This document shows, piece after piece, positions 18,311-32,000 of a DNA stretch of 32,000 nt. Source of the stretch: Dongia sp. (lineage in GTDB: Bacteria; Pseudomonadota; Alphaproteobacteria; Dongiales; Dongiaceae); assembly GCF_041906375.1 (NCBI RefSeq), contig NZ_JAYRJJ010000009.1, forward strand, positions 12,706-44,705, in the 5' to 3' direction. Below the pieces are notes generated by a model that searched no databases, was not told the DNA's origin, and saw nothing but the letters and a program-made list of their open reading frames with translations. The first letter of the stretch is position 1. Each line of letters starts with the position of its first letter. The position numbers and the translations under genes are program-made.

Positions 18311-19279
18311 TTAGACGAACCACGATTTGGGGGCGTGCTTGCGAGGGCCGCTGGGGGGCCTCTTGATCTTCTTAGGAGGCAAGAACTCCCGGAACACGTC
18401 ATTAATGATCTGCCGCCAGCCGTCGTCGGGCTGCATCCCGATCAGAGTTTGAACAGGGTTCAGCCGCATGATGGAATCCTTGGCCTCCCCAGCATTCTTC
18501 TCCATGAGCAACTCCAGATACTGGGTGAACTTCGTCGGCCAGTCATCCAGCAGCGCGACGCCACGGGCAATCAGGTTTGACTGGGAAACCGTTGTCTTAC
18601 TTTCCCCAGGGCGCATAGCTTTGCCCTCGACGGCAGCAACGACACGGCCCAGGCTTAGCAGAAGCTCTAACTGATCGCCCATTGATAGGTCGGACAGGAC
18701 CGACCCTGGCGGGTGAGTTCCGCCAGTAGCAATCACATGAATCACCTTCATTGCATCTTGGGTCCGCTGATCCACGCTGCGGCCCTGCATCAAGGTGAAC
18801 GGCATCTGACAACGAGGACAGGCCTCGATTCCAGATAATGACCACAGGAATTCATGGTCCGGACAGGAGGGGCAGCTATTGATGAGAGTCCGCCGATGAA
18901 CGTGGCAGGCACTCAGCGGTCCCAAATACCAATTATGCCTGTGGAAAGGACTGTCCACTAAGCATTCTGGGCAGATCCACATTTTACTAGTCCGGACCCA
19001 ATCCCGAAGGATCACCTGGCCGCGAAAGTGCGCCAAGCGAGGTGTATCGGCACCCAGCAACCCGTTTTGGAGAACCTCCCATTGATCACCCAGTGCGTCG
19101 GCAAGTTGGTCCAAGCTCCAGGCAAAAGGTAGTCTCCATATCCGGTCGGCAGCGCGAAAATCAGGGATCAGATTTCCGACGTTTTCAGAACCAAGGATTT
19201 TCGCGGTGCGCTTGAGATAACCGAGGATGCTTTCGCCTTCATATGCCTGAGGGCGGATCGGATATTGTTTGACTGTCAT
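18311..19279 (-). CDS. TniQ-domain protein (solitary, with no TnsA/B/C partners in the window)
   Basis: The N-terminus 'YPIRPQAYEGESILGYLKRTA' fits the P-x-P-x-x-GES-hh-S/G-hh-R TniQ signature. It is followed by zinc-ribbon-like 'CPECL..H(x3)W..C.VHRRTLINSCPSCP...CPRC'. I trimmed the start to the only ATG (19277-19279). The track ORF begins at a TTG at 19411. Confidence 0.7.
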   Translation of the reverse strand: MTVKQYPIRPQAYEGESILGYLKRTAKILGSENVGNLIPDFRAADRIWRLPFAWSLDQLADALGDQWEVLQNGLLGADTPRLAHFRGQVILRDWVRTSKMWICPECLVDSPFHRHNWYLGPLSACHVHRRTLINSCPSCPDHEFLWSLSGIEACPRCQMPFTLMQGRSVDQRTQDAMKVIHVIATGGTHPPGSVLSDLSMGDQLELLLSLGRVVAAVEGKAMRPGESKTTVSQSNLIARGVALLDDWPTKFTQYLELLMEKNAGEAKDSIMRLNPVQTLIGMQPDDGWRQIINDVFREFLPPKKIKRPPSGPRKHAPKSWFV

Positions 19280-19394
19280 TGTTGGTTTGCTTGGGATCGA
19301 AGTTGCTGTGCATGCCACGCATGGAATTTGCCAAGCAGTTCTCAATTTAGGGTTACGATTTCCTTCAATTTTACATGAATTCGATCGACGCGTG

Positions 19395-20225
19395 TCAGAC
19401 CACGCTGACAACGACAGCGGTTAGATTATCATGGCCGCCCCGCTCAATGGCGAGTGACGCCAACCGATCTACTGCTTGGACGCCGTAATCTATCAGAGCC
19501 TCCCAAATCTCATCATCCTCAATAAGATCGCTAATTCCATCACTACAAATCAGATAACTCTCACCCAGCCAAAGTGATTTCCCACCCACATGTGGCGTGA
19601 TCTCTAGCTGAGGATTTGAGCCGCCTAGAACTTGAACTAGCGTGGAACTCTGCTTCTTTAGGCCTAGATAACCACCAACGGTATCGTCCCGAGATAGCTG
19701 ATAGAGCCCAAGCGAGCTAAACGAATACACTCGGGAGTCACCGACGTTAAAGAAATACATCGTCGCACCATGAATCCATAAGCCCGCTATTGTCGTGCCC
19801 ATGCCCCGCGTCTGGTCGGTCATCAAATCGAAGATTTGTCGGTCGACCTCGACGAGTGCTTGAGCAATGGCCTCCTTATTGTCGGCCCTCAAAAGCCGTC
19901 TGCTAAGGAACTCGATGGCGCCATGACTAGCGACCTCTCCGCCCGCCGGGTTGCTCATTCCGTCTGCGACCAGAACGACTCTGACTTCGTCCGTGGAAGC
20001 AGTTACTTCATGAGCGTTTCGCATGGAGTCGGAGGATGCCCAATCAACGACGTGAACACGATCCTGATTGATTGAATGAATCAGGCCCGGATGAGTGATC
20101 GCCCGGATCAGGAGGTTGAGTGAAGCGGGTGGCGATGACGGCCTATTTTCCTTCATTTGGGCTGACTTCAGATATTCGGGCATTGACGAAGGAAGCCGTG
20201 CCATCGATTTGGATGACAAACTCAA
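19395..20225 (-). CDS. PP2C-family (PPM) Ser/Thr protein phosphatase
   Basis: All PPM blocks are present: 'NQDR', 'VADGMS..GGEVAS', 'GMGTT', 'NVGDSRVY', 'CSDGISD' and 'GGHDNLTAVVV'. The start is uncertain. 20225 is a TTG, and in-frame ATGs lie at 20204, 20183 and 20156. Every option overlaps the stop of the upstream TIR gene (20143-20145). Confidence 0.85.
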   Translation of the reverse strand: MSLSSKSMARLPSSMPEYLKSAQMKENRPSSPPASLNLLIRAITHPGLIHSINQDRVHVVDWASSDSMRNAHEVTASTDEVRVVLVADGMSNPAGGEVASHGAIEFLSRRLLRADNKEAIAQALVEVDRQIFDLMTDQTRGMGTTIAGLWIHGATMYFFNVGDSRVYSFSSLGLYQLSRDDTVGGYLGLKKQSSTLVQVLGGSNPQLEITPHVGGKSLWLGESYLICSDGISDLIEDDEIWEALIDYGVQAVDRLASLAIERGGHDNLTAVVVSVV

Positions 20226-21027
20226 ATGTCATCTCATCCTTGTCAGGCTTGATAAGACCGCGAGTGTTGTCGACGATCGCGAGGATCTTGGTGGCTGCAT
20301 AGAAGCCATTGGTGTTTCTGAGTATGAGAATTTGACCAAGCTGCGGCCGACGATGTGCCGAGGAGAAGTCGAAAGTGGCGGCGTCGCCAATGTCGCTTAT
20401 TTCGTGGGCCCCAACAGCGACAGCGATGCCATGTATGCTGGGCTTGTCGTTGTGAGCTTGTATACTCGTGTCACTGGATTTACTCCAATGAGTCTCGAAG
20501 AGATATGGGTCACGTCCCAGGATGTAGACGCCGTTATACGACGAGTAATCGAAAGTGATCGTCCCGCTGCTTGATGTCACATGAGGCGGGGGAACGTCTG
20601 ATGCCTTGGTAGCGAAGGGGCTTATTCCCAGCTTCTGAACTATCAGTGTCGCCAAAGCATAGGGCGTCAGCTTATTCGCATCGAGATATTGGATTGTCGA
20701 GGGCATTCCCGGCACTGGCGTGTCATCAAAGCGGACAGGCAGAACGTATTCTGACTTCTCCATCAGAGCTCGGCTTAGAGCAGAACGACGTTCGTGGCTG
20801 CACCAGGGTTTGTCCACATACTCCTTGGAGATGAACATCACCACATACGATGTCTCAGCGGAGAAAAGCTGATGGAAGAACTCGACGCCGTCTTTGCCCC
20901 ATAGCGTTACTTGGCTGTCGCCGTCATAGAAGACCGGAACGCCAAAGGATTGAAGGGATCGAACGACCTGCTCGACGTAGAGTCGTTGTTCTCCAGCGAA
21001 CGAAACGGCTGCCTGATACTTAAACAT
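20143..21027 (-). CDS. TIR-domain protein with an unassigned ~150-aa C-terminal domain
   Basis: The N-terminal ~140 aa read 'AAVSFAGEQRLYVEQVVRSLQSFGVPVFYD..VVMFISKEYVDKPWCSHERRSAL', which is TIR_2-like with a WCxxE glutamate. The C-terminal half ('TITFDYSSYNGVYILGRDP...GQILILRNTNGFYAATKILAIVD') looks beta-rich and I do not recognise it. Confidence 0.8.
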   Translation of the reverse strand: MFKYQAAVSFAGEQRLYVEQVVRSLQSFGVPVFYDGDSQVTLWGKDGVEFFHQLFSAETSYVVMFISKEYVDKPWCSHERRSALSRALMEKSEYVLPVRFDDTPVPGMPSTIQYLDANKLTPYALATLIVQKLGISPFATKASDVPPPHVTSSSGTITFDYSSYNGVYILGRDPYLFETHWSKSSDTSIQAHNDKPSIHGIAVAVGAHEISDIGDAATFDFSSAHRRPQLGQILILRNTNGFYAATKILAIVDNTRGLIKPDKDEMTFEFVIQIDGTASFVNARISEVSPNEGK

Positions 21028-21284: not shown

Positions 21285-22724
21285 GTGATATCAAAAGTAG
21301 AAGGCTTCATAGAAAAATACTTAGGTGAACTAAGGCAGAACAACGCCGCCGTTTTCGTTGGGGCTGGACTGTCTACTAGTGCTGGCTTTGTTGACTGGGC
21401 AGGCCTTCTGGCGCCGTTGGCCAAAGAGATAAGCCTCGACAGCACCAAAGAGACTGACCTCGTGGCGCTTGCCCAGTACTACCTCAACTCCAAGCGTGGG
21501 CAACGCCACGACATCAATCAACTTCTAGTCGACAAATTTTCAGATTTGCGAGCGCCGACGGAGAACCATCGCATTCTTGCTCGGCTTCCTCTCGGCGTTT
21601 ACTGGACCACCAACTATGATCGACTGCTGGAAACTGCAATTCAGCAGGCTGGTCGTCGACTCGACGTAAAACTCACGGTCAAGGGTCTGTCGAGGACACG
21701 CCCCGGTCGAGATGCCGTGCTCTACAAGATGCATGGCGACATTGAATTGCCCGAAGACACGATTCTGGCAAAAGACGAGTACGAGAGATATCACGTTAGC
21801 CACCAGCCCTTCGTCACAGCTCTCTCGGGCGACCTCGTCGAGCGAACTTTCTTATTTCTCGGCTTCAGCTTTACAGACCCGAACATCGACTACATTTTTA
21901 GCCGAATCCGGATTCAACTTGTTGGCAATCAGCGGACTCACTACTGGCTGACCAAGCGTCGCACTCAAAAGCCCGGAGAAAGCTCAGAGGACTTCGGGTA
22001 CGCGAGGGCTAAGCAAGATCACGTTATCGAGGATCTCAAGCGCTTCAACGTTGAAGCAATCCTTGTCGATGAGTACTCGGACATCACCGAAACTCTGCAG
22101 AAAATCGAGAATCGATTTCGCATGGCGACAGTCTTTGTCTCTGGTGCGGCCGCGGACTATTCGGGCAATGACCCGACCGTTGTTGATCAGGTTCTTAAGA
22201 AGATTGGTACGAATCTCATTTCAGATGGCTTCCGGATCGCGAGCGGCATGGGTATCGCTGTCGGGACGGCAGTCGTCACTGGTGCAGTCGAACAGATCTA
22301 TTCAGATGACTCACGTTCTATCCAAAACAGCCTGGTGCTGCGACCCTTTCCCATTGGGATTGAGGACGCCGCCAAGCGTATGGAGACGTTTACTCGCTAT
22401 AGGGAAGAGCTCATCAGTCAGGCCGGGATCGCGATCTTCATTTTGGGAAATAAGATCGAGAGCGGAAAGCTCGTCGAGTCTCCCGGGGTCTGGCAGGAGT
22501 TCGAGCTCGCAAAGCAGAAGGGGCTCCACATTATCCCCGTCGGTGGGCTTGGCGGCATGGCTGCCAAAGTCGCAAATGAAGTGCTGACAAACTTCGCCCA
22601 ATACTACCCGAAAGATGACGGCTCCATCCGCGCGGCAATCGAAAAGCTGAATGGGCCAATGGGGGATGGATTGGGTTACCTCGACGCTCTACGAACGATT
22701 ATTAACAAGCTCGCAAAGGACTAA
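21285..22724 (+). CDS. thsA: Thoeris ThsA (N-terminal SIR2 NADase plus C-terminal SLOG signal-binding domain)
   Basis: Alignable by eye along its whole length with Bacillus cereus ThsA as I remember it. Shared blocks include 'AAVFVGAGLS', 'DLVALAQYY', 'NHRILARLPL..YWTTNYDRLLE', 'DAVLYKMHGD', 'FLFLGFSFTDPNIDYI', 'ITETLQKIENR', SLOG 'TVFVSGAA', 'LVLRPFP' and 'IFILGNK'. It has a GTG start after GGGGA. Confidence 0.92.
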   Translation: MISKVEGFIEKYLGELRQNNAAVFVGAGLSTSAGFVDWAGLLAPLAKEISLDSTKETDLVALAQYYLNSKRGQRHDINQLLVDKFSDLRAPTENHRILARLPLGVYWTTNYDRLLETAIQQAGRRLDVKLTVKGLSRTRPGRDAVLYKMHGDIELPEDTILAKDEYERYHVSHQPFVTALSGDLVERTFLFLGFSFTDPNIDYIFSRIRIQLVGNQRTHYWLTKRRTQKPGESSEDFGYARAKQDHVIEDLKRFNVEAILVDEYSDITETLQKIENRFRMATVFVSGAAADYSGNDPTVVDQVLKKIGTNLISDGFRIASGMGIAVGTAVVTGAVEQIYSDDSRSIQNSLVLRPFPIGIEDAAKRMETFTRYREELISQAGIAIFILGNKIESGKLVESPGVWQEFELAKQKGLHIIPVGGLGGMAAKVANEVLTNFAQYYPKDDGSIRAAIEKLNGPMGDGLGYLDALRTIINKLAKD

Positions 22725-22728
22725 TTGA

Positions 22729-23139
22729 ATGCCGAGGCGCGTATTCTTTAGCTTCCACTATGACGACATCATGAACGCGAACATCGTTCGAATGTCGGGT
22801 CAGTTCAAGCCGACAAAGGAGACCGGATTCTATGACGCGTCGCTCTGGGAAGAGGCGAAGCTAAAGGGCGACTCAGCAATCAAGCGGCTCATCGACGACG
22901 GTATGAAAAACACGAGCGTCACGTGTGTCCTGATTGGCGAAAAAACCCACGCTCGGCCCTGGTGCAAGTATGAGGTCGAACAGTCGCGAGCTCTCCGCAA
23001 GGGACTGTTCGGTGTTTTGCTTCCCAATCAGACCAAGTACGGCCCGAAGTGGATCAGCCAATGGGCGCCCGTCTACACCTGGGATCACAACAAGTTTCAG
23101 AGTTGGGTCGACCAAGCCGCTGAGAAAGTTGGCCGATAG
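22729..23139 (+). CDS. thsB: ThsB-like TIR-like protein (DUF1863 type), short form
   Basis: 'RRVFFSFHYDDI', 'FYDASLWEEAKLKGDSAIKRLIDDGMKNTSVTCVLIGEKTHARPWCKYEVEQS' parallels B. cereus ThsB. The gene starts 4 nt after the thsA stop. Confidence 0.85.
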   Translation: MPRRVFFSFHYDDIMNANIVRMSGQFKPTKETGFYDASLWEEAKLKGDSAIKRLIDDGMKNTSVTCVLIGEKTHARPWCKYEVEQSRALRKGLFGVLLPNQTKYGPKWISQWAPVYTWDHNKFQSWVDQAAEKVGR

Positions 23140-23205
23140 TCCAGCCCTGATCGGTCGGAGTTCGAGCGTGACATCGCCTCTGGGGATTTCAAAGAAAGAC
23201 ACCGA

Positions 23206-23805
23206 ATGCGCAGAACGTTCTTCTCGTTTCATTACCAACCGGATGTCTGGCGGGCTTGGAATGTCCGTAATTCTTGGGCTGTCGTGCCGACGGAACAGGA
23301 GGACGTGGGTTTCTTTGACGGTAGCGTATTCGAAGCTGCGAAGAGGACGAGCGATGATTCACTCAAGACCTTTTTGCGCGAAGGACTGAAGAATACTTCG
23401 GTAACTTGTGTGCTTGCAGGTACTGCGACATGGACAAGGAGATGGGTGCGGTACGAAATCGCGCGTAGCGTGATCAAGGGTAACGGCCTACTGACCGTTC
23501 ATATCCACGGGGTGAAAAACAAGGATGGAGTTGTCGCGGAGAAGGGTTCAAACCCGCTCAATGCGATGGGTGTGTATAAGGCCCTCGGCAGTATCTATCT
23601 GGCGGAATGGAAAGACGGCAAATGGGCGAAGTACGAAGATTACTCGCTGGCAATTCCCGAAGCGGATCTTAGATTTGCAGCCCCCACGACCGACAATGTG
23701 GTTCAGCTTTCCAGTCACTACATGAGTTACGACTTCGTCGACCAAAGCGGTCGGGCGAACATCGGTGGATGGATAGAGACCGCGGCGGGGTTGGCGGGTC
23801 GCTAA
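23206..23805 (+). CDS. thsB: ThsB (TIR-like, DUF1863 type), full-length form
   Basis: 'RRTFFSFHYQPDVWRAWNVRNSW', 'FFDGSVFEAAKRTSDDSLKTFLREGLKNTSVTCVLAGTATWTRRWVRYEIARSVIKGNGLL' and 'LAEWKDGKWAKYEDY' closely parallel B. cereus ThsB from memory. Confidence 0.9.
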   Translation: MRRTFFSFHYQPDVWRAWNVRNSWAVVPTEQEDVGFFDGSVFEAAKRTSDDSLKTFLREGLKNTSVTCVLAGTATWTRRWVRYEIARSVIKGNGLLTVHIHGVKNKDGVVAEKGSNPLNAMGVYKALGSIYLAEWKDGKWAKYEDYSLAIPEADLRFAAPTTDNVVQLSSHYMSYDFVDQSGRANIGGWIETAAGLAGR

Positions 23806-23862
23806 CTCGATGTGGCGCCGATTGGCGCCGCAAGCATTTGACAGAGAGAGTTGGGAGGAGCG

Positions 23863-24456
23863 ATGCCTTACCTAACCGAAAGCGAAGTAAGGGAAGCCGC
23901 GAAAGGTGTGGTGCTGCGTAAGCGCGCCATCAGTGCGGCTTCAATTCTCAAGGAGTCCGTTGAAGCGGCATCTGACGCCGATACCTTCGATGTGTTTCTG
24001 TGCCACGCATTTCGAGACGCAGAACTCGTTCTGGGAGCGAAGAATATTCTGGAGAGCAAGAGGTTGAAAGTCTATGTGGATTGGATCGTCGATCCTCAGA
24101 TGAACCGTTCCAATGTTACGGCCTCAACGGCAGGCATTCTCCGCAAGAGAATGCGGAACAGCAAAAGTCTATTCTATCTCTATTCCAACAACTCCACCCA
24201 GTCGCGATGGATGCCTTGGGAGCTGGGTTATTTCGATGGCCACAACGGGGCGGTTGCCATTTTACCAATCAAGCCGGATGGCAAGCGTATCGACTTCAGC
24301 CAGGAGGAGTATCTAGGTCTCTACCCTAAGGTCGAAATTCAAGACGCAGACCTATTCATTAATAGGACGACAGATTTACCAGTGCCTGGTGACGACAAAG
24401 CCAATTATAGAGGCTTTGAGACCTGGATCAGTCGGCCGCGGGAACTCCAACTCTAA
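23863..24456 (+). CDS. TIR-domain protein (third ThsB-type gene of the locus, different TIR subtype)
   Basis: 'FDVFLCHAFRDAELVLGAKNILESKRLKVYVDW...SKSLFYLYSNNSTQSRWMPWELGYFDG'. I trimmed the start to the ATG at 23863, directly after GGGAGGAG. The track TTG at 23851 would lie inside that RBS. Confidence 0.75.
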   Translation: MPYLTESEVREAAKGVVLRKRAISAASILKESVEAASDADTFDVFLCHAFRDAELVLGAKNILESKRLKVYVDWIVDPQMNRSNVTASTAGILRKRMRNSKSLFYLYSNNSTQSRWMPWELGYFDGHNGAVAILPIKPDGKRIDFSQEEYLGLYPKVEIQDADLFINRTTDLPVPGDDKANYRGFETWISRPRELQL

Positions 24457-24561: not shown

Positions 24562-26094
24562 ATGGCTAGACTACTTGGCCCTGTTCTGCGCCTTCGCGGC
24601 CACGACCATCGAAACAACCTCTGGCGCATAAGCGCGCTGGTATGTGTTGAGGCGGGCGATCCCAAGCCTACACTATCCTATTCGCTCGGCGTTGGTGACA
24701 GGAACATTCCCTGCGGCCAGCTCTGGGCAATCGACGGCGCAGAGTCTTATCGATTTGATCTCGATGTGCCCCTCACTGATCAGCCCCAGGTTCTTCGCTA
24801 TCGAGTTAGCACGGGGCCGGAAGAGTGGACAGTTCATGTCCCTGGCCAAAACATTCAGCCGCTGTTCGCATTTGGGTCGTGCAACGGTTTTTCGAGCCTG
24901 AAGCTCAAGAAGTCAATCGATGACTCGGATGCGCTATGGAAACATATGGCGCTCCGCCACGAAACTATCGGCTATAACGCTCTTCTATTGGGTGGCGATC
25001 AAGTTTACTCCGATGCCATGTGGGAGCTCATCACCGAACTTGAAGACTGGAATGATCGGCTCTGGAGCGATCCTCTGAAAGGTGTCGTTCCCGAGGGCTT
25101 GCCTGAAAAACTGCTGAACCACTTCTTTATGGAAATGTACTGCAGGCGTTGGAGTCAGCGCCCGGTTCGCGAAGTTCTAGCTCGAATACCAACCATCATG
25201 ATGTGGGATGATCACGACATCATGGATGGCTGGGGTTCCTACAAAGAAGAGTGGGCTCAGAGCCCTGTCTATCGCCTCATCTTCTCTACTGCGAGCAAGT
25301 GTTTTGAACTCTTTCAACTCCAGTCGACGATGCACGATCCGGTATTTATCCCGGATCGTGCGGCAGGCTACAGCCAGCTCTACTATTTCTCGGGCGTGTC
25401 GCTTCTCATTCCTGACCTACGTGCTGAACGGCGGCTTGATCAGGTAATCAGTCCGACAACGTGGAAGGCTATCTATAGTAAGCTCGAAAGCCTATCGATC
25501 GATCCCGATCGCGCACTAGTTCCCTGCCGACATCTATTGGTCATGTCTAGCATTCCCGTCATGCACGCGCGGTTCGGTCAAATCGAGTCAATCCTTGGCT
25601 GGACGCCGGGACAGCAAGAGCTTGAGGACGACCTACACGATCATTGGAGCAGTCGCCCCCATCGAGGCGAGCGCCTTCGCCTGATTCATCGGCTCCTGGA
25701 GTACTCCCGCAAAGAAAATGTGAGAGTGACCATTCTGTCCGGAGACGTTCATGTCGCGGCACATGCGACAATCTATTCTAGTCGGGAGGGCGAGCCTAGC
25801 ACCAAGCACACACTGGTTCAGTTAACTTCATCGGGTATCGTTCATCCGGCGCCCCCAGCGATCATGAGGTTTGCCCTCAACACTCTGTTTGATGATGACG
25901 AAGAGATTGATCAGGGCATCATTGGGCGCATGGAAAAGATGCCGGGCGACGAAAGGCGCTATGTTGCATCGAGGAATTGGCTATCTCTCGAACGAGATGA
26001 TCCTCAACGATCCTTGGGGCGGCTTTGGGCGAACTGGTTCGCCGAAGAGGATGTGGCGCATCCGTTTACGAGGGTGATTCATCCGATCGGATAG
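24562..26094 (+). CDS. PhoD-like / calcineurin-like metallophosphoesterase
   Basis: 510 aa with metallophosphatase blocks 'FAFGSCNG', 'LLLGGDQVYSD', 'IMMWDDHDIMDGWGSY' and 'ILSGDVHVAAH'. The ATG follows GGGGGAGTGAG. Confidence 0.75.
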   Translation: MARLLGPVLRLRGHDHRNNLWRISALVCVEAGDPKPTLSYSLGVGDRNIPCGQLWAIDGAESYRFDLDVPLTDQPQVLRYRVSTGPEEWTVHVPGQNIQPLFAFGSCNGFSSLKLKKSIDDSDALWKHMALRHETIGYNALLLGGDQVYSDAMWELITELEDWNDRLWSDPLKGVVPEGLPEKLLNHFFMEMYCRRWSQRPVREVLARIPTIMMWDDHDIMDGWGSYKEEWAQSPVYRLIFSTASKCFELFQLQSTMHDPVFIPDRAAGYSQLYYFSGVSLLIPDLRAERRLDQVISPTTWKAIYSKLESLSIDPDRALVPCRHLLVMSSIPVMHARFGQIESILGWTPGQQELEDDLHDHWSSRPHRGERLRLIHRLLEYSRKENVRVTILSGDVHVAAHATIYSSREGEPSTKHTLVQLTSSGIVHPAPPAIMRFALNTLFDDDEEIDQGIIGRMEKMPGDERRYVASRNWLSLERDDPQRSLGRLWANWFAEEDVAHPFTRVIHPIG

Positions 26095-26199
26095 CGTCGA
26101 GGCTACACATCATGCCAGGGCACTTTGGCACGATCTGCCATGGCGCATTGCTGAAACGTCTGCGGCGACACCTGTAACCGAAGATCAGTAGGTACATCC

Positions 26200-27111
26200 A
26201 TGAATCGTTCGGCGGAAACATCATTGATCGACGTTTTGGGGAGGCGGCATGAAAAGCTGACCTTGCTTTTGGGGAATGGCGTAAACCGCTACGGTAGTTC
26301 TGGTCGGCACAATTCCTGGGCAGATTTGCTGCTCGATGTTGCAAATAGGCATATTCCAGGTGTTGGCGACAGGCTTCCTTCCGGCGTTACGGCAACCGAA
26401 GTATTCGATCTATCCTGCTTAGCTGCGAAGTCTAAGGATTCGGAAGGCCTTTTGCAGAAGGAATTTTGTACCTCAATGGCTTCGTGGAGGGCATATCCGC
26501 ATCATGAGCGGATCGTGGAGTGGGCCCGGGAACGAGATCATCCAATTCTCACGACCAACTTCGACCAGGTCCTTTCAGAGTCCTGCAATGCGAATGTTTA
26601 TCATCATGGGAACTCGAAATTCACTTACTACTACCCGTGGGCAACCTACTTTGGGCTCGGAGAGATCCAACGCCCTTCATCGGCATTTGGTATATGGCAC
26701 CTACACGGAATGATGCGATATCATCGAAGCATACGTCTGGGGTTGACTCATTATATGGGGGCTGTTCACCAAGCCCGAAGGTGGATTCATCGTGGGGGCG
26801 GTAGACTTTTCTCATCGGCGAGAGCCATCGATACCTGGAGTGGAAGTGGGACTTGGTTGGACGCTTTTTTCAACAATGACCTGCTTGTGATAGGTCTTTC
26901 GTTGGATGAAGTAGAAGTCTTTATTCGATGGTTGCTCCTGGAGAGATCGCGCTTATTCAAGAACTTCCCATCATTGCGTCGCAGAGGTTGGTTTGTTTGC
27001 ACCAAAGACGGCGTCTCCCCAGGAAGAGAGTTGTTCCTGCGGGGCGTGGGGCTGACGCCAATCAGGGTGAAGGACTACCACGAGATTTATCAATCAACTG
27101 GCTGGCGCTAG
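26200..27111 (+). CDS. Stand-alone SIR2-like protein (SIR2_2 / ThsA-N-terminal type, no SLOG)
   Basis: 303 aa. 'LLLGNGVN' sits in the position of GAGxS. 'ILTTNFDQVLSE' contains Asn120 (codon 26557-26559). 'IWHLHGMM' contains the catalytic-position His. 'DLLVIGLSLDEVEV' parallels the FLGFSFTD block of ThsA. Confidence 0.75.
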   Translation: MNRSAETSLIDVLGRRHEKLTLLLGNGVNRYGSSGRHNSWADLLLDVANRHIPGVGDRLPSGVTATEVFDLSCLAAKSKDSEGLLQKEFCTSMASWRAYPHHERIVEWARERDHPILTTNFDQVLSESCNANVYHHGNSKFTYYYPWATYFGLGEIQRPSSAFGIWHLHGMMRYHRSIRLGLTHYMGAVHQARRWIHRGGGRLFSSARAIDTWSGSGTWLDAFFNNDLLVIGLSLDEVEVFIRWLLLERSRLFKNFPSLRRRGWFVCTKDGVSPGRELFLRGVGLTPIRVKDYHEIYQSTGWR

Positions 27112-27246: not shown

Positions 27247-27708
27247 TCAAGCTGCCCAGTCTCCAGCTTGGCGGGGCGCATTAAGGATTTCGGTGGCCGA
27301 AGCCTGCGCATCTATCAAGAAGGCAAAGGCAAGCTGGCCGTGGGCCTTAGAAATTGTTTCTAGAGCCCTGTCCTCCGCGGTCAGAAATAGCTCCGCGCCA
27401 TTTGTGATGATATATCGAAATGGCAGGGGCCCTAGTGGTGTGTTTTTGAGGTTTTGCCTGAGCTGACGAAGTGCGCTTTTTAGGCGAGAAATCTCAATAC
27501 CGGATTCCAGTAAGCCCTTAATGATCTTCAGGCTAACTACGTCCCCAAATGTGAAGCGGCGGCGGATACCACGCTTTCCTGGAGGCGACCCGGACGGCGT
27601 CACAATTCCCATCCTGGCAAGATAATCGACCATGGTTAATGACAGTCCGCTCAGTTCAGCGGCCCGTTTCGCTGTAACGCATTGAAGAACGATATTTTGC
27701 TTGACCAT
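27247..27708 (-). CDS. MerR-family transcriptional regulator
   Basis: The N-terminal HTH reads 'VTAKRAAELSGLSLTMVDYLARMGIVTP......RRRFTFGDVVSLKIIKGLLESGIEISRLKSAL'. I do not recognise the C-terminal ~70 aa. Confidence 0.75.
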   Translation of the reverse strand: MVKQNIVLQCVTAKRAAELSGLSLTMVDYLARMGIVTPSGSPPGKRGIRRRFTFGDVVSLKIIKGLLESGIEISRLKSALRQLRQNLKNTPLGPLPFRYIITNGAELFLTAEDRALETISKAHGQLAFAFLIDAQASATEILNAPRQAGDWAA

Positions 27709-27822
27709 TTCATAACTATGCTCAGAATTATGATGAATACAACAGAAACTTGCGACTCGGGATCGTGGCTCAGCTATAAGAAGACACGGTAATGTTGAGC
27801 AGGTTTAGTTGGTTGATATGTC

Positions 27823-27840
27823 GCAGATGTCGCTATCTGC
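27823..27840. promoter_or_regulatory. Palindrome cluster in the MerR / unknown-gene divergent region (candidate operator)
   Basis: GCAGAT-n6-ATCTGC (27823-27840) overlaps GCTAT-n4-ATAGC. It is flanked by two ACGGTAAT direct repeats (27785-27792 and 27851-27858). Confidence 0.35.
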
Positions 27841-27916
27841 ATAGCGCAAGACGGTAATCGGTGCTTTGATCGCCCATCGGTGGGATGACGCCCGGTTGAA
27901 TTTGAAGGAGGTGACC

Positions 27917-28384
27917 ATGGCTCTCGACTACGACAGATTGGTCGCCAAAAGCTATCAAGACGTTTTCGGTGACGAGTCCGTGAAGGTGATCGATGCAAGC
28001 GTTCTGGGCTGCATGATTGCATCAGCGTGGATGGCAGATGTATCGGATCACAAATTTCCATCCGAGCGTCTTGCTGCCCTCGTTACGTCGGTCAAAGATG
28101 TTCCAGAGTCCGTGCGGAACTCACTCCACATTCAAGAACGCCTTGAGGGCGACTACCTTGAGGAGACGACTGAGATGGTTGTTGCTGCTCAGTCCGCAGG
28201 CCTAGTCGGCCGTCTGAATCCCACAAGCGTATCCGCGATCTTTAAGGTCAACCCGGTAAAGGCATCTCAGCTCTTGAAGAGTTACGAGCTGGATTATCCC
28301 GAAGAAGTGGCCTGGGTGAAGCGGGCAATTGCTGGATTCCGCGACAAGGAGTCTAGCTCCAGTTCAGTGGCGGAAGTAGCTTAA
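27917..28384 (+). CDS. Hypothetical acidic protein, no family recognised
   Basis: 155-aa ORF starting at the ATG at 27917 ('MALDYDRLVAKSY'), directly after GAAGGAGGTG. It ends 11 nt before the HD gene. Coding status is supported by the strong RBS and the tight coupling, not by homology. Confidence 0.6.
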   Translation: MALDYDRLVAKSYQDVFGDESVKVIDASVLGCMIASAWMADVSDHKFPSERLAALVTSVKDVPESVRNSLHIQERLEGDYLEETTEMVVAAQSAGLVGRLNPTSVSAIFKVNPVKASQLLKSYELDYPEEVAWVKRAIAGFRDKESSSSSVAEVA

Positions 28385-28395
28385 GGTCACTGCAT

Positions 28396-30903
28396 TTGGG
28401 CAACCTTGACGCGCTTCAGGGCAAGCTCAAATCCGTATCAAAATTCATTGTTCCGTATATCTTCGAAGTTCTGGCGCCTCGCCTTATCGAGACGACTGAT
28501 CCTGACTATTTGGATGTCAGCGACTCCAAAGATCTGAATGATCCTATTTGGAAAATTGTTCGACTTCGCAAGCTTGAAGTTGCTCTTTTGAATTTGCCGC
28601 TCTTTCAGCGCCTTCGTCATGTTCGGCAGCTTGGCCTAGCTCATTTGGTTTATCCCACCGCTGTCCATAGCCGTTTGGACCATTCTATTGGCACCATGAT
28701 TGCGGCCCGCCGAATGTACGAAATGATCTTGGCGAACACCGACAAGATCGATCAGGCGAAGGCCAAGAAGTTCGGCGAAATAGCATCCTTTGCTGCGCTG
28801 CTCCATGACGCAGGGCATACGGCGTTCAGTCACTGTGGTGAGACGGTTCTCAGTACAATGCTTCCTGGGGAGTTCTCCAGGATCGAAAAGGAGCTACAGA
28901 CATTCTACTCGAAGGGCGATGGCGCCAAGACATTCAAAGAGAGTAAGCGGCCACCTGCCGCCGAGTTGATTTCGGTCCTATTCGTCCTTTCTCCATCAAT
29001 GCGGAGGTTCCTGACTAACCACGAGATACCTGTAGCTATTGAGCGTTTCATACTCACTGCGGCTGGATTGATAATTGGCCGCGGATACCAACTTGAGGAA
29101 GGCGACGACGAGTTCAATTTCATATCGTCAATTGTCTCCGGCGATCTAGACGCAGACAAAATAGACTATGTGGCGAGAGACGCATATTTCTCTGGCGTGC
29201 CTATATCGGCTGATGTTGATAGACTGATTTCGCAGCTTGTTGCAGCTCCCGTGACAAAAGACACGACCGTCAACGGAAAGCAGGCAGACCAGCATCTCAA
29301 GCTAAACAACAAAACTCGATATGATCTGGGAATTCGTAGGGCGGGCATCTCCGCATTTGAGATGTTCGTGATGACTAGATCTTATCTGTTCGAGCGAATC
29401 TACAGCCACCAGAAGATACGTGCTGCCGAACGGGCACTTGAGCGCACAGTCAGGCTATTTGTCGGTCACCTCTTGCCGGACATCGCAAAGGATGATCGTG
29501 ATAAACCGGAATCAATAAAGCTAGTAACCGAGGGGCTTCAGAAGGTTTTTGATCTATTGTTCGTCGCCACGGGAGACGATGGAGTCCTTCATGAAATGCT
29601 GCGGCACGGCGACTACGAGGAGTGGGCAAATCGAATCCTTCTACGACGCCTTCCAATGCGGGGCCTTGCCATCAATCAGCGGGTTGCCAAGGAGTTCGTG
29701 GCCGATGGAAATGGCACGCCAATGTCCATTCTTCTGCCATTCAAGTATGTCTCCAGAATAGCGACCGACAGCGCTCAGCTACGTGAGCTGGAGACGGAGA
29801 TCAAGGCATCCTCCGGTCTTGATGAATCTGATTACGTTATTATTGACTGGCCGAGCTTCAACCCGGTTAGCGAGAATCCTAAACTTTACGTTTGGGACCA
29901 TAAAGAGCCCAAGAATCTAAGTACGCTGAGCAGATATTTTAATGTTCAGCAGCTCTCAAATGCATATCGCGACGTTAAGCAAACTGCTTGGGTGTTCTGC
30001 TCGCCGTCCAATCGAGTAAAAGTTGGTGTAACTACTGCACTCATCCTCGAAGAGAAATTTGATTTGCTCCTTGGCATGGAGGCCTTTCATCGCGCCAAGC
30101 TCCTCGATCATGAGGTTACAGATTACCTCAATCACCTTTCACCACCGATTGGAAATGAGCGTGGGCGTATCGCATTAGACAATCTCAGACAGAATATTCT
30201 GGATTGCAGATTAATCCCTAGCGTCAAGCAGCTTGAGGAGGCCTTCGCAGATCTGGAAGAACCCGAAATTCCAAGGGTTGCAAATAAGATTGAAAGTGCT
30301 TTTCTCACTCACCCATTTTTGCGTGGATATTCAGATCATCTCGCTGAAGCCATGGCTGTCTTGGCCTTCCTGATCCGCCATGCACAGACGACAATTGGAA
30401 ATTTTCCTCAGCCTAGTCGAAAGGCGCGCGTTAAAGGTGACGAAGATCTTGCGCCTGACGCTGCAAGTGAGGATGAGAAGAAGAAGAAGCGAGAGGCCAC
30501 TTTTCAACAGAGCGTAAGAGAGTTCGTTCAGGCAGATCGAGCAACGAACGCTCGATTTGAGATCATTGACGGCGGACATGTTGGCGGCGGCGCGTTTGAT
30601 TTGGTTTTCCAATCGAAGACGCCGCCGATGGTCTCGGTCGTCGTGGAGCTGAAGAGCGAAGATGCGAAGTACGAAAAGATTTATGATAGATCGGCGGGTC
30701 AGCCGTCTGTCTATGCAACAGATCGATTTGGGCGTGCTTCGATTCTCTATGTGCAGTACAAACAGATGGAAAGCGTCTCTGTCTCGGATACAATCGAGCT
30801 TCGGAGGGCTTCCGGCAGCAACCAGGTAACATTTTGCCTCGCACAAAATGCCTTTGGCGGTAAGCCGAGCGAACGAGGCGGCGGGACGAGCAAAATAGCA
30901 TAA
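28396..30903 (+). CDS. SAMHD1/dGTPase-like HD-domain phosphohydrolase with a long C-terminal extension ending in a putative PD-(D/E)xK module
   Basis: HD blocks: 'PLFQRLRHVRQLGLAHLVYPTAVHSRLDHSIG', 'AALLHDAGHTAFSH' and 'GDLDADKIDYVARDAYFSGV'. The 835-aa length is much greater than I remember for stand-alone dGTPases. The C-terminus has 'GAFDLVF(x12)VVVELK'. The start is the TTG at 28396. There is no ATG upstream of the conserved N-terminal region. Confidence 0.8.
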   Translation: MGNLDALQGKLKSVSKFIVPYIFEVLAPRLIETTDPDYLDVSDSKDLNDPIWKIVRLRKLEVALLNLPLFQRLRHVRQLGLAHLVYPTAVHSRLDHSIGTMIAARRMYEMILANTDKIDQAKAKKFGEIASFAALLHDAGHTAFSHCGETVLSTMLPGEFSRIEKELQTFYSKGDGAKTFKESKRPPAAELISVLFVLSPSMRRFLTNHEIPVAIERFILTAAGLIIGRGYQLEEGDDEFNFISSIVSGDLDADKIDYVARDAYFSGVPISADVDRLISQLVAAPVTKDTTVNGKQADQHLKLNNKTRYDLGIRRAGISAFEMFVMTRSYLFERIYSHQKIRAAERALERTVRLFVGHLLPDIAKDDRDKPESIKLVTEGLQKVFDLLFVATGDDGVLHEMLRHGDYEEWANRILLRRLPMRGLAINQRVAKEFVADGNGTPMSILLPFKYVSRIATDSAQLRELETEIKASSGLDESDYVIIDWPSFNPVSENPKLYVWDHKEPKNLSTLSRYFNVQQLSNAYRDVKQTAWVFCSPSNRVKVGVTTALILEEKFDLLLGMEAFHRAKLLDHEVTDYLNHLSPPIGNERGRIALDNLRQNILDCRLIPSVKQLEEAFADLEEPEIPRVANKIESAFLTHPFLRGYSDHLAEAMAVLAFLIRHAQTTIGNFPQPSRKARVKGDEDLAPDAASEDEKKKKREATFQQSVREFVQADRATNARFEIIDGGHVGGGAFDLVFQSKTPPMVSVVVELKSEDAKYEKIYDRSAGQPSVYATDRFGRASILYVQYKQMESVSVSDTIELRRASGSNQVTFCLAQNAFGGKPSERGGGTSKIA

Positions 30904-30974: not shown

Positions 30975-32000
30975 CTAGTGCCGGGTCATTCCATGCTCTC
31001 GCGAAGCGACTACAGCTTCGACAAGCCGCTCAAGCGTCCGCAGCGACGATCCCTGCCATAAGCGTGACATCGCCTCCATTTCCTCGACCGTGAACGGGGA
31101 TGCCCATCTGGAGCTCAATCCCCGCCGCTCAAAAACCCGCTTGAGCATTTGGTAGCTGATGGCGACCATGTCTGACGGCCTGGGTTCCGGAAATCGGATC
31201 GCTCGACACCGATCAAGCAGCACGCCGGGAATGCCCTTGAGAGTGTTCGCTGTGGCGATCCACACGACGTTCGATAAATCCACTGGGGATTGAATGTAAG
31301 GGTCGACCCATCGCCGCGCTGACTGCGCTTCGAAGAACCCCAGCAAGACATCGAACATCGAGCCATTCTGTTTTGACGTGGACGCTTTTTCCATCTCATC
31401 GAGAAGAATTCCTGGAGACGCCGTCGCATGGCGGCGGATCATAGCCACTGGAAGAGAAGGCTCTCCTGAATGCCATCGCCGAGCCGTGCCGCCGATCGTA
31501 GAGTCCGCCACCCCGCCACATGGGTACGTCTCATTCGGCACTTCCAAGAGGTCAAGAAAACGCTCGGCGTAAGAAGTCTTGCCGCAGCCGGGCGGTCCAA
31601 ACAGAACAGTCGGCCGCATGGTGACATGCTGCTTCCCATATAGACCGCCTAACATCGCCTTGGTCACATCAGCCGCGTGAGGGAATTCGGTCAGCAATGT
31701 GTTGCCAATCAGATCAAGATTGGGAATCGCGATAAGAGGGAGTGCCTTGGCCTCGATTTCCTTGAATTCTCGGCGGAGCGTCGATCCCGCGCTGATGTCG
31801 GTGTTTCCAACTCGCTGCAGCACTACCACTGTCAGATCTTTCGGTGCGGACGGCCCATTTTGTGGTGTAGCCTGAACCTCAATGTGCGCCTCGATCGTCG
31901 CGTCTTTATCTGACAGCCTCTCCGATACCTCAGGATTGGCCTTTTTCAAAAACTTTGCGCCACACTCACACGCAGCTTGCCGCGCATCATTTCGCCGTAA
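30975..32000 (-). CDS. Lon-like AAA+ ATPase module without a protease domain, probably 5'-truncated by the window edge
   Basis: 'VLFGPPGCGKTS' Walker A, 'ILLDEMEKA' Walker B and 'VWIATANTLKGIPGVLLDRCRAIRFPEP' parallel the Lon AAA+ blocks (GPPGVGKTS / LLDEIDK / FIATAN..IP.PLLDRMEVI). The track start at 31949 is a TTG, and I translated the same frame as open through 32000. Confidence 0.75.
   Translation of the reverse strand, partial: LRRNDARQAACECGAKFLKKANPEVSERLSDKDATIEAHIEVQATPQNGPSAPKDLTVVVLQRVGNTDISAGSTLRREFKEIEAKALPLIAIPNLDLIGNTLLTEFPHAADVTKAMLGGLYGKQHVTMRPTVLFGPPGCGKTSYAERFLDLLEVPNETYPCGGVADSTIGGTARRWHSGEPSLPVAMIRRHATASPGILLDEMEKASTSKQNGSMFDVLLGFFEAQSARRWVDPYIQSPVDLSNVVWIATANTLKGIPGVLLDRCRAIRFPEPRPSDMVAISYQMLKRVFERRGLSSRWASPFTVEEMEAMSRLWQGSSLRTLERLVEAVVASREHGMTRH

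Follow-up and report, generated by a model that had tools for sequence, protein, structure and literature searches.

A candidate two-gene defense module of Dongia sp. combining a SAMHD1-like core, a predicted PD-(D/E)xK nuclease domain and a small partner protein

A stretch of 32,000 nucleotides (nt) from Dongia sp. (contig NZ_JAYRJJ010000009.1, positions 12,706 to 44,705; hereafter, the window) contains a pair of genes encoding a small protein of 155 amino acids (aa), referred to as A, and a protein of 835 aa, referred to as B, in which a SAMHD1-like HD core is followed by a putative PD-(D/E)xK nuclease domain. On balance, we lean towards reading this pair, located in a defense island, as a candidate anti-phage or anti-mobile-element module: the effector B would hydrolyze deoxynucleoside triphosphates (dNTPs) and cut nucleic acid under the control of its partner A, with a CvkR-like repressor as an optional component. 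Nucleotide depletion is an established antiviral strategy, as exemplified by SAMHD1, the bacterial dGTPases, the dCTP deaminases and Clover, and the module would represent a true SAMHD1-type enzyme in a bacterial defense setting.

Gene Organization of the Module

Gene A (27917-28384, plus strand) starts with an ATG at 27917, 5 nt behind the Shine-Dalgarno sequence GAAGGAGG (27904-27911, plus strand; read from the sequence). A gap of 11 nt (28385-28395) separates it from gene B (28396-30903, plus strand), which begins with a TTG codon and encodes, in this order, the SAMHD1-like core, a helical linker and the PD-(D/E)xK domain. On the opposite side of A, a 153-aa open reading frame (ORF) of the MerR family (PF13411, MerR_1) is found on the minus strand (27247-27708). 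The genes, the ribosome-binding site, the 11-nt gap, the HD motifs and the intergenic repeats all lie at the coordinates given by an earlier reading made from the DNA letters alone (the sequence-only reading). The product of gene B (P0001) is 100% identical to the protein deposited at NCBI as "HD domain-containing protein [Dongia sp.]", and its homologs begin at the same alignment column as the TTG-initiated, 835-aa ORF. A and B form the core of the module and are probably co-transcribed and translationally coupled; across ten close loci, the two genes overlap by up to 29 nt or lie up to 55 nt apart.

The SAMHD1-Like Core of the Large Protein

Judged by its sequence, fold and active site, the core of B is a complete, predicted dNTP triphosphohydrolase of the SAMHD1 type. 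The HD signatures HSRLDHS, LLHDAGHTAFSH and DADKIDYVARD, which the sequence-only reading had singled out, are indeed present, and each is aligned by HMMER to its equivalent in human SAMHD1. In a phmmer search against the PDB, B matched entry 2hek (E = 1.9e-23) and human SAMHD1 (E = 1.3e-14). An AlphaFold2 (AF2) model of B, built on 35 homologs, reached a pLDDT of 88.8 and a pTM of 0.86, and Foldseek aligned it to the complete cores of SAMHD1 and of EF1143 from Enterococcus (E ~1e-15, target TM-scores of 0.66-0.71) over 530-590 columns. Because these alignments extend over whole cores, the SAMHD1-like part covers approximately residues 1-560 and not merely the N-terminal third of the protein, as had been supposed, and the extra sequence shrinks from the supposed ~550 residues to ~270, consisting of the helical linker and the nuclease-type domain. 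The catalytic core itself, of the SAMHD1/EF1143 type, was placed at about residues 45-560 (28528-30075, plus strand) from the phmmer and Foldseek results and the invariant residues.

Residue conservation was counted over 35 homologs with 28-57% identity. R93, H96, H137, D138, H141, H146, E149, D254, K255, Y258, R261 and D262 are invariant in all of them. The metal- and substrate-binding residues (R..H; HD..H....H; DxDKxDYxxRD) match human SAMHD1 residue by residue, and the key residues of the core are almost fully kept in more distant clades too. Outside the active site, Q71 and R74 are invariant (35/35) and N48 is nearly so (34/35). These three residues align with the stretch NDPIHG...FQRLR of SAMHD1, which we take to line its allosteric sites, so that N48, Q71 and R74 would presumably correspond to N119, Q142 and R145. 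The predicted dNTPase activity of B is probably allosterically regulated. The position aligned with D137 of SAMHD1 is occupied by N66 in Dongia (28591-28593); in the family, it is D in 20 homologs, E in six and N in four, with other residues in the rest, an acidic residue (D or E) thus being found in 26 of the 35. The PDB holds a D137N mutant of SAMHD1 crystallized with XTP and, given N66, the Dongia protein may use a different activator nucleotide.

B is homologous to SAMHD1 and EF1143 over the entire catalytic core, with matching HD..H..H and DxDKxDYxxRD motifs, and the chemistry (dNTP to deoxynucleoside and triphosphate) as well as the nucleotide-driven oligomerization would likely be shared. 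In contrast to SAMHD1, the Dongia protein has no SAM domain, carries the ~270 additional C-terminal residues including the PD-(D/E)xK domain, and has an N at the residue aligned with D137; its system also has an obligate small partner gene and is located in a defense island. Some more distant relatives of the HD core (P0094, P0099 and P0110) carry a serine/threonine protein kinase domain at the N-terminus, a further architecture within this HD clade.

The Linker and the C-Terminal PD-(D/E)xK Domain

The core is followed by a helical linker of about residues 561-690 (30076-30465, plus strand), for which no Pfam match was obtained. In the model, its helices span residues 561-666, and a loop at 676-680 is of low confidence. 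The C-terminal domain of ~130 residues (about residues 692-820; 30469-30855, plus strand) is a predicted PD-(D/E)xK, or restriction-endonuclease-fold, domain. E700, G732, D735, E751, K753, Q769 and Y773 are invariant in the 35 homologs. The modeled order of the elements is helix (E700), strand, strand (D735), strand (E751-x-K753), helix (Q769) and strand, with E700 on the helix 692-713, D735 just ahead of the strand 736-740 and E751-x-K753 inside the strand 747-754. As modeled, the catalytic E/D/(D/E)xK residues on an alpha-beta-beta-beta-alpha-beta core are the signature of a PD-(D/E)xK nuclease.

Pfam returned sub-threshold matches to PDDEXK_3 (matched by 4 of the 19 members, with E = 0.0016 at best), PDDEXK_9, NucS_C, HSDR_N_2 and VRR_NUC. 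Secondary Foldseek matches, obtained with the full-length model, pointed to viral Mrr and PD-(D/E)xK proteins (probability of 0.97-1.0, E = 0.02-0.4), and the motif is kept in a distant Litoreibacter homolog (hhalign E = 1.8e-4). A profile search of the PDB with the C-terminal domain gave no match. The suggestion of the sequence-only reading that a nuclease is part of the module is in line with this predicted C-terminal domain. Strong purifying selection acts on the two active sites, so that the dNTPase and the nuclease activity are probably both in use.

The matches to Mrr-type type IV restriction domains, together with the weak Pfam matches to HSDR_N_2 and NucS_C, would also fit a type IV-like restriction system, in which the Mrr-like domain recognizes and cuts modified phage DNA, the small protein targets it and the HD enzyme removes modified dNTPs (e.g., hydroxymethyl-dCTP) instead of draining the normal pool; the family variation in the residue aligned with D137, a specificity position of SAMHD1 (D in 20 homologs, E in six, N in four, others in the rest), points in the same direction. 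We regard this explanation as very unlikely: the matches of the nuclease domain are all below thresholds, no known reader domain for DNA modifications was found with Pfam, and the partner does not appear to follow the nuclease (see below).

A different arrangement is present in a Vicinamibacterales locus (L009, 7797-11957). The HD ORF there encodes just ~419 aa, and a nuclease-like domain is found in a separate ORF of 463 aa, ~1.5 kb downstream, with a minus-strand ORF in between. Either the system is split, or the locus was rearranged or wrongly assembled.

The Small Partner Protein

Protein A had been described as having no recognizable family, and this holds: Pfam, PADLOC, NCBIfam, PHROGs and PDB sequence searches were all empty, and so was Pfam for 48 members of its family. 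As a word-index search yields just 3-10 homologs, an exhaustive HMMER search of 1.84 billion representative proteins was used instead. It retrieved 61 real clusters, all of them short (67-191 aa, some being fragments); P0137, a repeat protein, was discarded as a false positive of this search. A match of the small protein to an alpha-mannosidase (E = 9e-4) was judged spurious.

In 16 loci, the partner gene (E = 1e-48 to 3e-11) immediately precedes the HD gene; these loci belong to Alphaproteobacteria, Latescibacterota, Acidobacteriota and Planctomycetota. Each of the ten close loci that are complete has a partner homolog at this place (24-56% identity), and a broader partner profile recovers it upstream of distant HD-nuclease genes (E = 1e-11 to 1e-16) of Amylibacter, Latescibacterota, Litoreibacter, Vicinamibacterales, Pirellulaceae and Planctomycetota. 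No partner was found in ~69 loci with ordinary stand-alone HD genes of 400-600 aa. By these sequence comparisons, the small protein is an obligate partner of the HD fusion, and its family is seen solely in this context. The 155-aa ORF is a real gene, with homologs directly upstream of the HD gene in related loci, and the dedicated upstream partner proposed by the sequence-only reading is kept in every related locus examined.

The acidity noted for the small protein applies to the Dongia member (isoelectric point of 4.76), but not to the family, in which the isoelectric point ranges from 4.8 to 9.6. As acidity is not a family trait, a charge-based reading of A as a DNA mimic or inhibitor is weakened, and the "acidic DNA mimic" was rejected.

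Exchange of the nuclease does not seem to separate the partner from the HD core. Sister proteins of ~900 aa share this HD core, including every key residue, but a PRTase-CE domain (PF24390, E = 1e-29 to 1e-31) takes the C-terminal place of the nuclease. They were found in Polyangiaceae and Spartobacteria (L011, 7450-10580; L012, 7408-10619), and an ORF of 140-146 aa lies directly upstream of each sister gene. Among 12,367 ORFs, these two upstream ORFs are the best matches outside the family to the partner profile of the distant clades (E = 0.14 and 0.31), values that are meaningful because only upstream ORFs were under test, and they share the motif AAQ..L...NP with the small partner. With PRTase-CE in the position of the nuclease, the C-terminal position behaves as an effector slot, and the role of the partner is, from these sequences, probably tied to the SAMHD1-like core. 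For the type IV-like explanation, this argues against a function of the small protein in nuclease targeting.

In two Planctomycetota loci, a short TIR gene is present upstream of the small-partner gene (L010, 6890-7318; L013, 334-777). The one of L010 lies directly upstream of the partner and matches PF13676 (E = 1.2e-30), while that of L013 was recognized by eye. The TIR gene may be an accessory component in this Planctomycetota clade.

The placement of a small gene ahead of a large one, often with an overlap between them, recalls the order and coupling of type II toxin-antitoxin modules. In such an addiction module, the small protein would be a labile antitoxin neutralizing the toxic dNTPase-nuclease, possibly an autorepressor as well, and the pair would mainly stabilize the mobile element on which it resides, with phage defense at most as a side effect. 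The link of the pair to integrases, transposases and Tn7-like genes is consistent with this, as are the PRTase domains of the sisters, which are known toxin effectors and the toxins of ShosTA and PsyrTA. The Foldseek search that the sequence-only reading had proposed for the 155-aa protein was run, and nearly all top matches were winged-helix DNA-binding proteins, none of them significant (E >= 0.24). On the other side, an allosterically regulated toxin of 800 aa with two enzymatic parts is unlike typical type II toxins, the separate MerR regulator of seven loci makes autoregulation by the small protein unneeded there, and the small protein has a variable isoelectric point and no match to a DNA-binding family. 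We consider a toxin-antitoxin module unlikely; it is compatible with abortive-infection defense and in part a sub-case of the anti-phage reading.

Distribution and Neighborhood of the Homologous Loci

Approximately 53 full-length homologs of B (cluster representatives, 28-57% identity) were found among 5.8 billion proteins. The module was not found in scans of viral contigs, nor was a full-length member found in the plasmid and phage collections, and metagenome scans with the partner or the C-terminal alignment yielded next to nothing. A scan of genome contigs with the full HD alignment was dominated by generic HD genes, and the informative loci were L005-L013. All observations on gene context are based on ~17 loci.

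The neighbors of the homologs include a CBASS system in one locus, Kiwa and type I restriction-modification (R-M) genes in L003, type I R-M genes and an integrase in another locus, and an integrase, Fic and Tle1 in a further one. Tn7-like genes (one locus), transposases (another) and TIR genes were also encountered. Together with the Thoeris system of the window, these loci give a repeated co-location with known defense systems or mobile elements, in a small sample.

In eukaryotes, a role of SAMHD1 at DNA ends and stalled forks has been proposed. A housekeeping or DNA-repair function could likewise be imagined for the pair, with B regulating the dNTP pool and using its nuclease domain to process DNA ends or stalled forks, and A as an accessory protein. 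SAMHD1-like HD proteins are indeed widespread as single genes (the ~69 loci with short HD genes), the Azospirillum homolog adjoins mutS, and in L003, only a few kb separate the module from dnaN and gyrB. Kiwa genes lie between dnaN/gyrB and the module, however, which makes L003 itself a defense hotspot. The distribution is also sparse and patchy, as seen from the ~53 full-length representatives in 5.8 billion proteins and the 61 partner clusters in 1.84 billion; moreover, the genes are situated in a low-GC island, their neighbors are repeatedly defense and mobile-element genes, and the C-terminal domain is swapped for a PRTase effector in the sisters. A housekeeping role thus seems quite unlikely.

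The MerR-Like Regulator and the Intergenic Region

The MerR protein matches PF13411 (MerR_1) with an E-value of 7.5e-6 and 26.4 bits (cut-off, 21.6). With a profile of five orthologs, the closest solved relative is CvkR (Alr3614; PDB 7xn2, 154 aa; E = 1.2e-6), followed by GlnR and TnrA. Orthologs with 34-71% identity flank the pair in L001, L002, L003, L005 and L090. A recognizable MerR gene is present in seven of the ~17 loci: in six, the window and these five, it was identified by the family hidden Markov model, and in the seventh (L008), it is a separate MerR_1 gene. In the window, L001, L002, L005 and L008, merR runs divergently from the pair; in L003 and L090, it has the direction of the pair. 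In L003, merR overlaps the small gene, so that all three genes form one operon. The conserved trio of the sequence-only reading is therefore reduced to a conserved core of two genes: co-occurrence across genomes holds for the small gene and the HD gene, whereas the MerR gene is optional. By analogy, the MerR-like protein is probably a repressor and an optional accessory component.

CvkR is an atypical MerR-type repressor of the type V-K CRISPR-associated transposons, which binds a palindrome and is translated from a leaderless mRNA (PMC9938897). The CvkR-like subfamily is characterized by a beta-strand dimerization domain and a C-terminal helix instead of the canonical coiled coil. The Dongia protein is of nearly equal length (153 vs. 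154 aa) and has a candidate palindromic operator at its promoter or start codon. The sequence match is limited to positions 9-97, i.e., the winged-helix part and the start of the dimerization region, the dyad differs from the CvkR motif AnnACATnATGTnnT, and the controlled genes are different.

The best operator candidate is the inverted repeat I2 (TCATAACTATG / CAGAATTATGA; 27710-27733, without strand), which abuts the start codon of merR and has 11-nt arms with 82% complementarity. In the window, L001, L002 and L003, the pattern ..CATA...CTGAGC.....TATG.. is invariant and keeps a constant spacing to the ATG of merR, in either orientation of this gene. The dyad has the form TCATA(A/G)T-N10-A(C/T)TATGA around CTGAGC in these four loci, and in L005 and L090, other perfect inverted repeats occupy the same spot by the merR start. 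In this window alone, the dyad has a P of 0.077 against shuffled sequences; its weight comes from the conservation across loci and not from this single value. A predicted sigma-70-like promoter, TTGACC-16-CAGAAT (27701-27728, plus strand; 9 of 12 consensus positions), points at the small gene, overlaps the dyad and is located inside a block conserved with L001 and L002.

The sequence-only reading had proposed a MerR-type operator at 27823-27840. The two overlapping palindromes with 6-bp arms (GCAGAT/ATCTGC from 27823 and CGCTAT/ATAGCG from 27831) and the two copies of the ACGGTAAT repeat (27786-27793 and 27851-27858) do exist there. Two such palindromes, however, compare with 0.36 expected in shuffled sequences (P = 0.075), which is near chance, and the 8-mer repeat has a P of 0.21 in the same comparison. 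L001, the closest orthologous locus, keeps the stretch GATGTCGCTATC of the palindrome region, but not its palindromic partners. This site was rejected as the operator, the conserved dyad lying at 27710-27733 instead. A regulatory RNA in the 208-nt intergenic region is unsupported, as the region gave no Rfam match and no unusual RNA structure (folding z-score of +0.88).

Comparison with Known Defense Systems

The anti-phage dGTPases (Tal et al. 2022; "dGTPase" in PADLOC, NF041026 in NCBIfam) resemble B in belonging to the HD superfamily, in being of the nucleotide-depleting type and in their location in defense islands, and the expected outcome is the same: phage DNA synthesis is starved of dNTPs. 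These enzymes are, however, encoded by single genes, with profiles of 395 (PADLOC) and 425 (NCBIfam antiphage_dGTPase) positions, compared to the 835 aa, nuclease fusion and partner gene of Dongia. The sequence-only reading was thus right in regarding the protein as SAMHD1-like and far longer than the described anti-phage dGTPases. B scores 17.1 bits with NF041026 (cut-off, 400), 42 with TIGR01353 (cut-off, 152) and 25 with the PADLOC dGTPase model, the last over residues 70-170 only. Membership in the Dgt-type anti-phage dGTPases was rejected on the NF041026 score; the Dongia protein belongs to a different HD clade, far nearer to SAMHD1 than to the Dgt-type enzymes.

Clover consists of the dGTPase CloA and the nucleotidyltransferase CloB, the partner restraining toxicity until infection (PMC12265719). 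Both systems have two genes, an HD effector of the dNTPase type and a dedicated partner, whose control over the effector is inferred in the case of Dongia. The Dongia partner is a helical protein of ~150 aa without a nucleotidyltransferase motif or Pfam match, and the effector has an additional nuclease domain. As this motif is lacking, a p3diT-like signal is not expected. Membership in Clover was rejected, as Pfam, NCBIfam and PADLOC revealed no partner with a Pol-beta-type nucleotidyltransferase.

Shedu SduA and CBASS Cap4 are effector-swapping defense proteins with PD-(D/E)xK nuclease domains. Like them, B has a C-terminal restriction-fold nuclease-type domain on a regulatory or sensing N-terminal part, and its relatives swap the effector (here, for PRTase-CE); in B, however, the N-terminal part is a full enzyme with an intact active site. 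No PADLOC model of SduA, Cap4 or other nuclease effectors matched the HD protein.

None of the three proteins is specifically covered by a model of PADLOC v2, NCBIfam (June 2026) or PHROGs, the three collections compared, and full-text literature searches returned no description of the module. A survey of dGTPase fusions of July 2026 lists SAM, NLR, TIR, death, CARD and SIR2 partners, and no nuclease. A review of 2026 states that SAMHD1-like bacterial defense proteins may remain unidentified, the bacterial enzymes described so far being of the Dgt type. The pair is hence probably an undescribed anti-phage system. The restriction-fold nuclease fusion, the obligate partner and the optional CvkR-like repressor are features not described in the sources searched.

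Proposed Mode of Action

In the anti-phage reading, the MerR-like protein would bind the dyad at its own start codon and keep the expression of the operon low. A would bind the SAMHD1-like core of B and control B; restraint in uninfected cells seems the most likely form of this control, with sensing and targeting as alternatives. Upon infection, B would deplete the dNTPs and its nuclease domain would cut DNA, by which phage replication would stop. If confirmed, the module would add a two-pronged effector, combining substrate starvation and DNA cutting, to the defense catalog. It would also offer a tractable bacterial model for the regulation of SAMHD1-type enzymes and their coupling to nucleic-acid cleavage, as well as a new family of small regulatory proteins for study.

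Several observations weigh against this reading. The enzymatic activities, the interaction between A and B, the direction of regulation and the defense phenotype are derived from homology and gene context. In the core of B, the invariant E190 is preceded by A, S or G, compared to the H of the "HE dyad" in other dNTPases. The PD-(D/E)xK assignment combines motif, topology and sub-threshold matches, with no significant match to any single database entry. The AF2 model of the 155-aa protein is poor (pLDDT of 63, mostly helical), and Foldseek found nothing significant with it. Finally, the family is rare, so that the context statistics depend on the ~17 loci, and the Azospirillum homolog (L086) is found between MarR and MutS, with no obvious defense neighbors.

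A bolder reading, by analogy with SAMHD1 and in our estimate rather unlikely, is that the SAMHD1-like core and its partner are a chassis that senses the nucleotide pool, in which allosteric binding and oligomerization license a swappable effector (the nuclease or PRTase-CE). An infection would disturb the dNTP pool, leading to allosteric nucleotide binding and SAMHD1-like oligomerization, by which the C-terminal domains would meet; the dNTPase would then be both the sensor and a first-line effector. The link of human SAMHD1 to DNA cleavage has long been debated. If the chassis reading were true, B would be a dNTP-gated immune nuclease and a natural fusion tying SAMHD1-type enzymes to DNA cleavage.

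The Genomic Island Around the Module

The GC content of the window drops from ~0.62 to ~0.52 at ~18 kb, with ABC-transporter and permease genes before this point and the defense island after it. Downstream of the module, a 324-aa Lon-like AAA+ protein is encoded on the minus strand (30975-31949). It matches TIGR00763 at Lon positions 357-557 (E = 4.9e-23) and has weak matches of the IetA type. It consists of the Lon-like AAA+ module alone, and a possible partner gene would fall past the end of the window. This gene is convergent with the HD gene and missing from all homologous loci, and was therefore excluded as a member of the module.

On the left border of the low-GC island lies a run of three serial minus-strand ORFs (18311-21027). 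Their products are a protein with a TIR domain (20143-21027), a phosphatase of the PP2C type (19395-20225) and a protein with a TniQ domain (18311-19411). The TIR and PP2C ORFs share 83 nt, the PP2C and TniQ ORFs 17 nt, and no tnsABC genes adjoin this run. It may be an uncharacterized TIR-based module or the remnant of a Tn7-like element. Next to it lies a type I Thoeris system (21285-24456), composed of ThsA (SIR2 and STALD domains; PADLOC E = 2.8e-179) and three ThsB-like TIR genes (22729-23139, 23206-23805 and 23851-24456), this Thoeris thus having more than one ThsB. Between the Thoeris system and the HD module (24562-27111), the gene for a 510-aa phosphatase of the PhoD_2 type (PF19050, E = 5.5e-37) precedes that for a 303-aa protein whose weak match to SIR2_2 falls just short of the threshold. 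Neither of the two matched a PADLOC model, and they may constitute another uncharacterized defense pair.

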